From NCBI RefSeq assembly GCF_049116215.1, contig NZ_JAGDZB010000001.1:459678-523677 (forward strand): a stretch of DNA of 64,000 nt, in the 5' to 3' direction. A program made the translations under genes and the position numbers. The notes beneath the pieces are model-generated. The model was not told the origin of the DNA and did no database searches. It saw nothing but the letters and a program-made list of their open reading frames with translations. Of the stretch, positions 16,756 through 18,604 are shown in pieces (positions within the stretch are counted from its first letter, which is position 1; each line of letters starts with the position of its first letter). Source of the DNA: Shimia sp. Its GTDB lineage: Bacteria > Pseudomonadota > Alphaproteobacteria > Rhodobacterales > Rhodobacteraceae.

Positions 16756-17565
16756 ATGGACAAGAACCGCTATCACCATCTTGGCTGGCTTCATGGGATC
16801 GAACTGTTCGAAGCCGCTTTCAGCACCCAAACCTTCTCGCGGCATGCGCACGAGGGTTTTGCGATTGGTGCCATTGCGGAAGGTGCTGGCGGCTACCAAT
16901 GCCGCGGCGAAACCATGGTCCTGCCAGCTGGCTCGCTGTCCCTCATGAACCCGGAAGAGCCGCACACAGGCTTCGCGGCAACACCCTGGCTGCGCTATAA
17001 CATGCTGTACGCGTCTGAGGCTGCCGTTTGCGCCGTCTTAGACCTCAAAAGCCTTCGCGGCTTTGCCACGGTTGCGCCAAAGGACAAGGGCTTTGCCATC
17101 TCCCAAAGCCTGTCTGTCCTGGCAACCACGCTCAACGCACCAAAATTCCTGGACTGGCATCTCCAGATCGAAGAGGCGGTCCATGAAGTCTTGGCGCAGT
17201 CTTTTGTCCGCTATGGCCGCGCTGACTTGCCTCCGCCCGGTCGCGAGCCCGACGCGATCTCAACCTTGCGCGCGTGCATATCTTCCGGGGTTGCGCAGGG
17301 AGATGACCTAAGCCTGACCGATCTGGCAGAAACCGTTGGTCTAAGCCCCTCCTATCTGATCCGGTCCACCCGTCGCCAAACCGGGCTAACCCCGCATGGC
17401 CTGGTGTTAAAAGCCCGTGTCGAACACGCCCATCACCTGATTCTGGATAAGACCCCAGCTGCCGAGGCCGCGGTGATCTCCGGCTTCTACGATCAGGCGC
17501 ATCTGATCCGGCAATACCGACGCCATTTTGGTGTGACGCCGGGCGCTGTAGTCCAGCATTCCTAG
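16756..17565 (+). CDS. AraC family transcriptional regulator with cupin ligand-binding domain
   Basis: FSRHAHEGFAIG cupin; LAETVGLSPSYL and GFYDQAHLIRQYRRHFGVTPG HTH motifs. Confidence 0.93.
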   Translation: MDKNRYHHLGWLHGIELFEAAFSTQTFSRHAHEGFAIGAIAEGAGGYQCRGETMVLPAGSLSLMNPEEPHTGFAATPWLRYNMLYASEAAVCAVLDLKSLRGFATVAPKDKGFAISQSLSVLATTLNAPKFLDWHLQIEEAVHEVLAQSFVRYGRADLPPPGREPDAISTLRACISSGVAQGDDLSLTDLAETVGLSPSYLIRSTRRQTGLTPHGLVLKARVEHAHHLILDKTPAAEAAVISGFYDQAHLIRQYRRHFGVTPGAVVQHS

Positions 17566-17647
17566 CAGGTCACTTTTTTCCAATACCCATTTTGACCAAA
17601 ACGGTAGGCGATGGCGCGACAGCCGCAGCAACCGAAAGCCATCCCCG

Positions 17648-18604
17648 ATGATACGACGCACCTGGCAAGCCGCAATGATAGGCCTCGCCCGTTCCAACAC
17701 CGTTCAATCCTTCATGCAAAACAGCCGGGCCACGTCGTTCCTACGTGGGAAATATGTGGCTGGTGATAACGGCGATGCCGGATGCGCGCGAGCCGTCTCC
17801 CTGTTCAAAAGCAGCGGTATCCGCTCGTCGATGTTTTTCATGGGGGAGTATGTCGATGACCCGGCCCTCGTGAAAGAAACCCTGCGCCAGAAACTCGCAG
17901 TGGCCGATGCCATTGCAGCACATCAGCTCGACATCCACATCTCGGTGGACCCCACCCAGATCGGGCACGTCATCACCCCGGAAGCTGTCGAGGATCATGC
18001 GCAAACCATTGCCCAAAAGGTAAGGGAACTTGCCGGCCCCTCCACCGGGGTTCATTGCCTCATGTTGGACATGGAGGACGCAAGCCTGAACACCCCAACC
18101 ATCGCCCTCCACAACAGCCTTCAAGACAAAGGGCTTCCCGTGGCCTTGACGCTTCAGGCTTACCTGCGCCGCACGTGGGGCGACATGGAACAACAGGTCC
18201 GGCGCGGCAGTCGGGTCCGGCTGGTGAAAGGCGCCTTTGCCGCCGGTCCCAAACTTGCCTTTCAGTCCAAAGCCGAGATCAAGCACAACTCGCGGCGCTT
18301 GATCGAATTGATGTTTTCCGACACCGCCAAGGAATGCGGGTTTTACCCAATCATTGCCACCCACGACACCATTCTGCACACCTTCACAATTGAAACCGCA
18401 CGCCGCAATGGCTGGGCTCAGGGAGAGTATGAATTCGAAATGCTTCTGGGCGTGCGCGAAGACGTTGCCAAGACCCTGGCTGATAAAGGCGAACGTGTGC
18501 GATTGTATGTGCCTTTTGGTCGAGATTGGTGGCCCCACGCCGTACGTCGCATCGGTGAGAACCCAGCAAACGCAGCGCTGCTGATCCGGTCACTTTTTCA
18601 GTGA
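17648..18604 (+). CDS. Monofunctional proline dehydrogenase-family flavoenzyme (divergent active site)
   Basis: YVAG, GE, LDMED, LQAYL, RLVKGAF, IATHD, YVPFG, RRIGENP motifs. Confidence 0.88.
   Translation: MIRRTWQAAMIGLARSNTVQSFMQNSRATSFLRGKYVAGDNGDAGCARAVSLFKSSGIRSSMFFMGEYVDDPALVKETLRQKLAVADAIAAHQLDIHISVDPTQIGHVITPEAVEDHAQTIAQKVRELAGPSTGVHCLMLDMEDASLNTPTIALHNSLQDKGLPVALTLQAYLRRTWGDMEQQVRRGSRVRLVKGAFAAGPKLAFQSKAEIKHNSRRLIELMFSDTAKECGFYPIIATHDTILHTFTIETARRNGWAQGEYEFEMLLGVREDVAKTLADKGERVRLYVPFGRDWWPHAVRRIGENPANAALLIRSLFQ

Follow-up and report, generated by a model that had tools for sequence, protein, structure and literature searches.

What does an enzyme with the proline dehydrogenase (PRODH) fold oxidize when the active-site lysine of that fold has been replaced by aspartate? 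The question is raised by a gene in a stretch of 64,000 nucleotides from Shimia sp. (Alphaproteobacteria, Rhodobacteraceae; assembly GCF_049116215.1, contig NZ_JAGDZB010000001.1, positions 459,678 to 523,677 of the forward strand), which we refer to as the window and whose own numbering is used throughout. The gene encodes a PRODH-like protein of 318 aa and lies directly downstream of a gene for a transcriptional regulator of the AraC family. In this work, we find that the change from Lys to Asp is a trait of a whole, well-separated clade of PRODH-like proteins, and not a private mutation or a chance event. Because a supposedly universal Lys is replaced by Asp throughout such a clade, the enzyme probably oxidizes an amine other than proline. 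On the sequence evidence, we lean towards a flavin dehydrogenase that is encoded by a single inducible gene and acts on a non-proline amine, probably a cationic or N-alkylated one.

Fold and family of the enzyme

In fold and in family, the 318-aa protein is a PRODH. It matches the Pfam profile Pro_dh (PF01619) over profile positions 5-274 of 278 with a score of 80.2 bits (cut-off 27), and its AlphaFold2 (AF2) model, built on 25 relatives, has a predicted local distance difference test score (pLDDT) of 88.6 and a predicted template modelling score (pTM) of 0.86. The top Foldseek matches of the model are 2g37, 2ekg and 4h6q (TM 0.79-0.92, E-value 1e-22), and the model has the (beta-alpha)8 barrel and the N-terminal helical arm of the solved monofunctional PRODHs. 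The motifs GE, LDMED, LQAYL, ATHD and RR, which the original prediction gave as kept, are all present in the translation. The flavin-binding residues Q170, R191, K194, T238, H239, D240 and E304, whose roles we take from the description of PRODH flavin contacts in PMC5335563, are also present and are conserved both in the clade described below and in PRODHs that have the lysine (Lys-type). The Arg pair R300-R301 (roles according to PMC12398946) and the gate residue Glu67, which are features of a functional PRODH, are invariant among the 25 relatives and in a MAFFT alignment with Lys-type proteins.

As a functional L-proline dehydrogenase (EC 1.5.5.2), however, the protein fails in two respects. 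The column of the active-site Lys holds Asp101, and the score against the NCBIfam equivalog for monofunctional PRODH (NF045947, ProDh_Thermus) is 144.3 bits, which is below the cut-off of 500.

The closest characterized proteins are the monofunctional PRODHs of Thermus thermophilus (2g37/2ekg) and Deinococcus radiodurans (4h6q; EC 1.5.5.2), which belong to the same length class (about 310 aa, helical arm and barrel) and align with E-values of 1e-32 to 1e-35 at 28-33% identity. All of them have in common the Arg pair, the gate Glu, and a Leu and a Tyr packed against the ring, and the flavin-phosphate contacts K187, T226, H227 and D228 of the T. thermophilus enzyme correspond to K194, T238, H239 and D240 here (PMC5335563). 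Unlike these two enzymes, the Asp clade has Asp for Lys, KGAF for KGAY, FExL for FQxL and DWWP for DWYP; the Arg at the RRIAERPEN position is lost (N305), and the clade has an insertion of its own near residues 222-230. The PutA proteins of Proteobacteria contain a homologous PRODH barrel (E-value about 1e-6 to PutA chains) with the same Arg pair and flavin motifs. However, a PutA comprises about 1000 aa or more, whereas the present protein has a single Pro_dh domain in 318 aa and is without the GSALDH, arm and alpha domains.

Replacement of the active-site lysine

The active-site Lys is described as conserved in every PRODH (PMC12398946, PMC10651016, PMC13155685), from the bacterial to the human enzymes (PMC13155685), and a 2026 review calls it universal. 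In SmPutA, the residue (K265) forms an ion pair with the substrate alongside R488 and R489 (PMC12398946), and in the PutA of Escherichia coli (EcPutA), K329 is next to the heteroatom of the ring and has been proposed as the base (PMC10651016). The mechanism-based inactivator N-propargylglycine cross-links this Lys to flavin N5.

The original prediction had read the charge reversal from a motif of a single PRODH, and systematic alignment confirms it. The codon is GAC, in the context HISVDPTQIGH; HMMER aligns Asp101 on the Lys of S-I/L-K-L in the D. radiodurans (4h6q) and T. thermophilus (2ekg) structures, and MAFFT places it in the same Lys column together with 65 Lys-type representatives. No other Lys takes this position in the alignments, and a compensating conserved Lys or Arg, sought across the clade alignment, is not found in the barrel. 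The basic residues gained in the clade are at position 15, in the N-terminal arm, and at position 228, in the clade-specific insertion; conserved basic residues are lost at positions 7, 30, 101 and 305, and the conserved acidic gains are 101 and 264 only. The insertion (residues about 222-230, before strand beta6) is mostly basic at 228 and is gapped in 47 of the 65 Lys-type PRODHs.

A metal site composed of His97, Asp101 and His107 was also considered, but was dropped because His107 is not conserved.

A clade without the lysine

To place Asp101 among its relatives, 1.84 billion representative proteins were searched exhaustively with HMMER, and 106 near-full-length matches were aligned with MAFFT. 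Matches down to 36% identity have Asp, or rarely Glu, Ser or Thr, in column 101, and from 34% downward the column holds Lys. In the 31 Lys-less representatives, the residue is Asp in 26, Glu in one and Ser or Thr in four, whereas all 65 Lys-type monofunctional PRODHs have the Lys. In a maximum-likelihood tree, the 31 Lys-less proteins are separated from the remaining 66, of which 65 have Lys and one has Arg, by a branch with 100% support in the Shimodaira-Hasegawa-like approximate likelihood ratio test (SH-aLRT), so that the Asp subfamily named in the original prediction is indeed a clade. Among the 25 relatives of the window's protein, which extend down to 56% identity, Asp101 is invariant, as are about 79 columns that include all of the flavin-contact motifs. 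A literature search for a Lys-less PRODH clade found no paper describing it; the clade is previously undescribed and is known to databases (PGAP) only under the name "proline dehydrogenase family protein".

Asp101 does not change in isolation but co-varies with Phe197, Glu264 and Trp295, giving a signature D101/F197/E264/W295 in place of K/Y/Q/Y. Position 197 is Phe in 88% of the Asp clade and Tyr in 97% of the Lys-type representatives; the corresponding values are 100% Glu against 97% Gln at position 264, and 81% Trp against 85% Tyr at position 295. We take the columns of F197 and E264 to be those of EcPutA Y437 and Q511, respectively, and use these as positions only. Further positions that separate the two groups are Y68, H97, M139, T168 and G303. 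Common to both groups are Glu67, D141, Q170, R191, K194, T238-H239-D240, L266, Y287, R300, R301 and E304, of which Tyr287 is the residue matching PutA Y540 and is kept in all members of the clade. In the AF2 model, D101, F197 and E264 are each located at the C-terminal end of a barrel strand or just beyond it (E97-100, E189-193 and E262-266, respectively), and W295 is on helix alpha8; the C-terminal ends of the barrel strands form the flavin and substrate site (PMC13155685).

These comparisons also sort the residues named in the original prediction, which had pointed to KGAF, FEMLLG and PHAVRR as departures from KGAY, FQFLYG and PYLTRR. All three motifs are present (F197; E264, L266 and L267; H297, R300 and R301), and F197 and E264 are informative together with D101, to which W295 is to be added. 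The Tyr residues of FQFLYG and PYLTRR are not: L267 is variable, and in place of H297 most of the clade has the Tyr of ordinary PRODHs, so that the Y552 position has Tyr in most members.

In a second Lys-less sub-branch within the clade (P0186, P0215 and P0237; 99% branch support), position 101 is Ser or Thr, position 197 is Tyr, and the LDMED and LQAY motifs are altered as well. This sub-branch may represent yet another specificity.

Table 1. Features of the locus, in window coordinates
Feature	Position	Strand	Evidence or remark
ORF without Pfam hits	14875-15408		in strain-specific stretch
ORF without Pfam hits	15427-15741		in strain-specific stretch
DUF1415 gene	16016-16546		in strain-specific stretch
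AraC-family transcriptional regulator, 269 aa	16756-17565	+	Pfam; N-terminal cupin-type AraC_binding domain, C-terminal double helix-turn-helix (HTH)
Conserved 22-nt box AGGTCAcTTTTTTCCAATACCC, candidate promoter/operator	17567-17588	+	6-locus DNA alignment; just after AraC stop codon
Flavoenzyme (318 aa) with the PRODH fold, member of the Lys-less "Asp clade"	17648-18604	+	Pfam Pro_dh, AF2, Foldseek
Asp101 codon (GAC)	17948-17950	+	alignments; position of PRODH active-site Lys (T. thermophilus K99, EcPutA K329, SmPutA K265)
Phe197 codon	18236-18238	+	alignment; KGAF, Tyr of KGAY in Lys-type PRODH
Clade-specific insertion	18311-18337		residues about 222-230
Glu264 codon	18437-18439	+	alignment; FEML, Gln of FQxL in Lys-type PRODH
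Trp295 codon, helix alpha8	18530-18532	+	alignment; DWWP, Tyr of DWYP in Lys-type PRODH
Arg300-Arg301 codons, retained carboxylate-binding and gate Arg pair	18545-18550	+	invariant in both clades
Terminator-like hairpin and T-run	18714-18737	+	consensus scan only; about 110 nt past PRODH-like stop codon
IS6/IS240-type DDE transposase gene fragment	18816-19283	-	Pfam DDE_Tnp_IS240, profile positions 3-37 of 139, at ORF end
tRNA-Arg(CCT)	19500-19576	-	ARAGORN; right edge of strain-specific stretch
ORF, open reading frame; IS, insertion sequence.

The regulator and the spacer

The upstream gene encodes a member of the AraC/XylS family (HTH_18 67.5 bits, AraC_binding 66.3 bits, HTH_AraC 58.9 bits), which shares with the cupin-type regulators of this family the AraC_binding domain and the double HTH. 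Against the NCBIfam equivalogs, it has no equivalog-level match to a characterized regulator, and its best scores are far below the cut-offs. Orthologues with 69-78% identity stand immediately upstream of the PRODH-like gene in the six loci of the closest relatives (L001, L002, L028, L029, L045 and L046).

The two genes are separated by a spacer of 82 nt. In a DNA alignment of six loci, the 22-nt box listed in Table 1 is the best-conserved stretch of this otherwise divergent spacer; a scan of the region between the two genes for the sigma-70 consensus found no promoter-like site. The AraC protein probably senses the substrate of the enzyme or a relative of it, and would switch the gene on by acting at this box.

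Distribution and genomic setting

The PRODH-like gene is rare and patchy. Of 400 other genomes sampled from the class, 3 carry it, as does 1 of 400 in a phylum-wide sample, and it was found neither in 19 genomes of the same family nor in a genome of the same genus. The clade also occurs in several cultured Alphaproteobacteria, among them Actibacterium sp. XHP0104 (WP_263715713.1), Aestuariicoccus sp. MJ-SS9 (WP_316290965.1), Roseospira goensis (WP_184432886.1), Rhodospira trueperi ATCC 700224 and Rhodobium orientis DSM 11290, and hundreds of intact homologues exist in marine, soil and sludge metagenomes.

The carriers are not short of an ordinary PRODH. The window's genome (G000) has a full PutA on another contig (C3), which reads ISVKLS, KGAY and FEFQRL, and a full PutA with K/Y/Q is present in all four carrier genomes examined (the window's and three others). 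Two related genomes that do not carry the PRODH-like gene have PutA only.

Within the window, positions 14618-19495 (about 4.9 kb) have no counterpart in the same-genus genome G380, which matches 13000-14617 and the sequence from 19496 onward on two different contigs. Note that the term "islet" for this stretch reflects solely its absence from this one genome. The stretch contains the regulator and enzyme genes together with a transposase gene fragment and ends beside a tRNA gene (Table 1). A direct repeat of the tRNA end flanking 14618-19495 was looked for and not found, and a search of the IS-fragment region against plasmids gave no match. At the left edge, a 1144-aa ORF (11269-14703, minus strand) has a C-terminal GDSL lipase/acylhydrolase domain (residues 943-1133) as its sole Pfam match, the first 940 or so residues being without a family match.

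Gene neighbourhoods

For a comparison of gene contexts, the neighbours of the PRODH-like gene were clustered from 25 genome loci and 80 metagenome loci, and Pfam families were tallied for 82 upstream and 84 downstream neighbours. The tallies overstate independence because related loci are included. Genes in the fetched loci were called by a crude heuristic based on GC content at third codon positions (GC3), which overlooks some genes, such as the AraC gene of L002.

Regulators that sense a ligand are the most frequent neighbours, and the AraC type leads among them. Among the 82 upstream genes, 15 are AraC-type in total, with the cupin AraC_binding domain in 7 and a DJ-1/PfpI domain (GATR type) in 7; 7 are GntR-FCD, 2 AsnC and 2 MarR. 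In three individual loci, TetR, MarR and response-regulator genes are immediately upstream. No enzyme or transporter partner recurs in the approximately 100 loci, where only regulators do so and, in one lineage, DUF2585 and carnitine genes. In particular, the 25 most frequent Pfam families in these upstream and downstream neighbours include no aldehyde dehydrogenase (a candidate pyrroline-5-carboxylate (P5C)/GSAL dehydrogenase), nor does Pfam find one between 11 and 24 kb of the window, and no hydroxyproline or lysine catabolic genes recur among the neighbours.

The closest relatives (74-81% identity) keep the pair of cupin-AraC and enzyme genes while their flanks are entirely different. The flanks include mobile-element remnants, such as TraG, DUF736, Fic and TIR genes in L028 and an integrase fragment in L001. 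The original prediction had linked the enzyme to a co-oriented cupin-AraC regulator; this link applies to the window and to these relatives, at least 74% identical, and does not extend further. Outside this group, the gene follows GATR-type AraC, GntR, AsnC, MarR or TetR regulators, or housekeeping genes. The notion of a catabolic module must likewise be reduced: the unit consists of a regulator and one enzyme, and is not a multi-step pathway.

In the Hyphomicrobiales loci (L014, L015, L016, L017, L020 and L097), a GATR gene shares 4 nt with the start of the PRODH-like gene. Its product resembles GbdR and CdhR (270 bits to GbdR), and the GATR gene is divergent from an operon of BKACE, a fusion of carnitine 3-dehydrogenase (503 bits) with a thioesterase, and SDR genes. 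In the same lineage, DUF2585 is convergent downstream of the PRODH-like gene in 10-11 loci. GATRs, such as GbdR, CdhR, SouR and CahR, have been linked to the sensing of amine-containing compounds (bioRxiv 10.1101/2021.11.02.466972), and in lineages other than that of the window the clade's gene would be co-transcribed with a GbdR-like member.

Other associations are confined to single or few loci. In L047 (4752-10392) and L081, a gene for an ELFV-type amino-acid dehydrogenase is directly upstream, and in L047 a gene of about 1139 aa is directly downstream. Large upstream genes (720-820 aa) were considered as a shared partner and rejected, as they are unrelated to one another (PriA, acetyl-CoA synthetase, E1 dehydrogenase, a GcvT fusion, an RTX protein and a sensor). 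The GcvT fusion (L002, 4484-6871, uncultured Pelagimonas) is a 795-aa protein that joins DUF1989 to a GcvT-type, folate-binding aminomethyltransferase, and about 90 nt separate its gene from the AraC gene downstream. GFA (formaldehyde-activating) genes are found 3' of the PRODH-like gene in three other loci. The GcvT fusion and the GFA genes give an anecdotal hint of one-carbon release.

Proposed function and alternative explanations

We propose that the protein probably uses the barrel of monofunctional PRODH for the flavin-dependent dehydrogenation of a C-N bond, and that L-proline is probably not its physiological substrate. Asp101 would take the role of the Lys next to the substrate nitrogen, either as a counter-ion or as a base for a protonated amine. 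The pocket is predicted to be more acidic (D101, E264 and the loss of R305) and more aromatic (Y68, F197 and W295), which would favour a secondary or tertiary amine that is cationic, N-alkylated or poor in carboxylate; candidate substrates are amino acids with an N-methyl group (N-methylproline, sarcosine and dimethylglycine, for instance) or a cyclic amine. As in PRODH, flavin N5 would accept the hydride, to be passed on to the quinone pool. If the imine product hydrolyses spontaneously, no dedicated second enzyme would be needed, which would explain the single-gene organization. The AraC and enzyme genes probably move as one small accessory unit that was gained by horizontal transfer.

The idea of a PRODH fold retuned for a non-proline amine was put forward in the original prediction, and the clade-wide co-varying changes, the presence of PutA in the carriers and the lack of a P5C dehydrogenase partner strengthen it, short of proof. 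Its narrower substrate class, a cyclic amine that is without the carboxylate or carries an additional positive charge, may still apply. A further proposal, which we hold tentatively and at rather less than even chances, is that the clade constitutes a new family in the PRODH fold, namely a quinone-linked enzyme that would dehydrogenate or demethylate a cationic or N-alkylated amine, in which Asp101 and Glu264, together with an enlarged group of aromatic residues (Tyr68, Phe197 and Trp295), would form an ammonium pocket. Its substrates would then be, for example, N-methylproline, breakdown products of osmolytes of the dimethylglycine/sarcosine type, or a cyclic amine without a carboxylate.

Several points weigh against an inducible dehydrogenase for a non-proline amine. 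A search of the literature found biochemical data for no member of the clade. Induction by the AraC protein is argued from adjacency and the conserved box only, and the link to a carnitine locus comes from one lineage. The gene context is heterogeneous, with many loci among housekeeping genes (priA, recO/parC, alaS, aroA), and therefore gives no substrate. In addition, the enzyme could still bind an alpha-imino acid, L-proline included, with Asp as the base, because the other proline contacts (the Arg pair, Tyr287, Leu266 and the gate Glu) are retained.

This last point leads to the chief alternative, a second, separately regulated dehydrogenase for L-proline or a close analogue (e.g. thioproline or dehydroproline) that works alongside PutA and uses Asp101 as base. 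The conserved flavin-binding and proline-contacting residues, Tyr287 at the PutA Y540 position among them, would suit such an enzyme, as would the close similarity of the fold to the solved PRODHs and the name given by PGAP. We nevertheless regard it as unlikely, though not negligible. The Lys that it would have to dispense with is invariant in the Lys-type representatives and reportedly kept all the way from bacteria to humans (PMC13155685), proline should bind less well once the charge next to its carboxylate is reversed, and the co-varying set of changes is fixed across a deep clade. Every carrier examined already has PutA, no P5C dehydrogenase recurs as a neighbour, and the score against the PRODH equivalog is 144 bits, with a cut-off of 500.

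Oxidation of 4-hydroxyproline (as by HYPDH/PRODH2) or of pipecolate would be a shift of substrate with precedent, since these are known alternative substrates of the PRODH family and are common in marine and soil organic matter. PutA Y540 enforces proline over hydroxyproline, and the PutA Y540S structure with hydroxyproline (3e2q) is among the Foldseek matches of our model. The clade, however, retains Tyr (Y287) at this position in all its members, which should disfavour hydroxyproline, and no hydroxyproline or lysine catabolic genes recur nearby. Human HYPDH, a comparable case of a PRODH-family member with a shifted substrate preference, keeps the active-site Lys (PMC13155685), whereas the Asp clade does not. 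We consider this explanation improbable. Least probable of all, and to be given very little weight, is that the gene on its genomic islet is a PRODH relic, either without catalytic activity or in decay. The strain-specific stretch beside an IS fragment and a tRNA gene, and the loss of the catalytic Lys, could be read in this way, but the reading frame is intact, the invariant columns among the 25 relatives include all of the flavin-contact motifs, Asp is invariant across the deep clade, the metagenomes hold hundreds of intact homologues, and the structure prediction is confident.

Significance

PRODH is among the best-studied flavoenzyme folds and is a drug target, and its active-site Lys has been treated as universal. 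A deep, conserved Asp clade with three co-varying changes indicates that the PRODH fold has been retuned at least once. Identification of the substrate would correct existing annotations and test the proposed role of the Lys as a base, and it might uncover a route by which one enzyme handles an amine that is abundant in the environment. Since the unit consists of just a regulator and an enzyme, testing it is easy, and the two could serve anew as a biosensor/enzyme pair. If the substrate is indeed a cationic or N-alkylated amine, the clade would represent an unrecognized single-gene route in the turnover of methylated amines by marine and soil bacteria.

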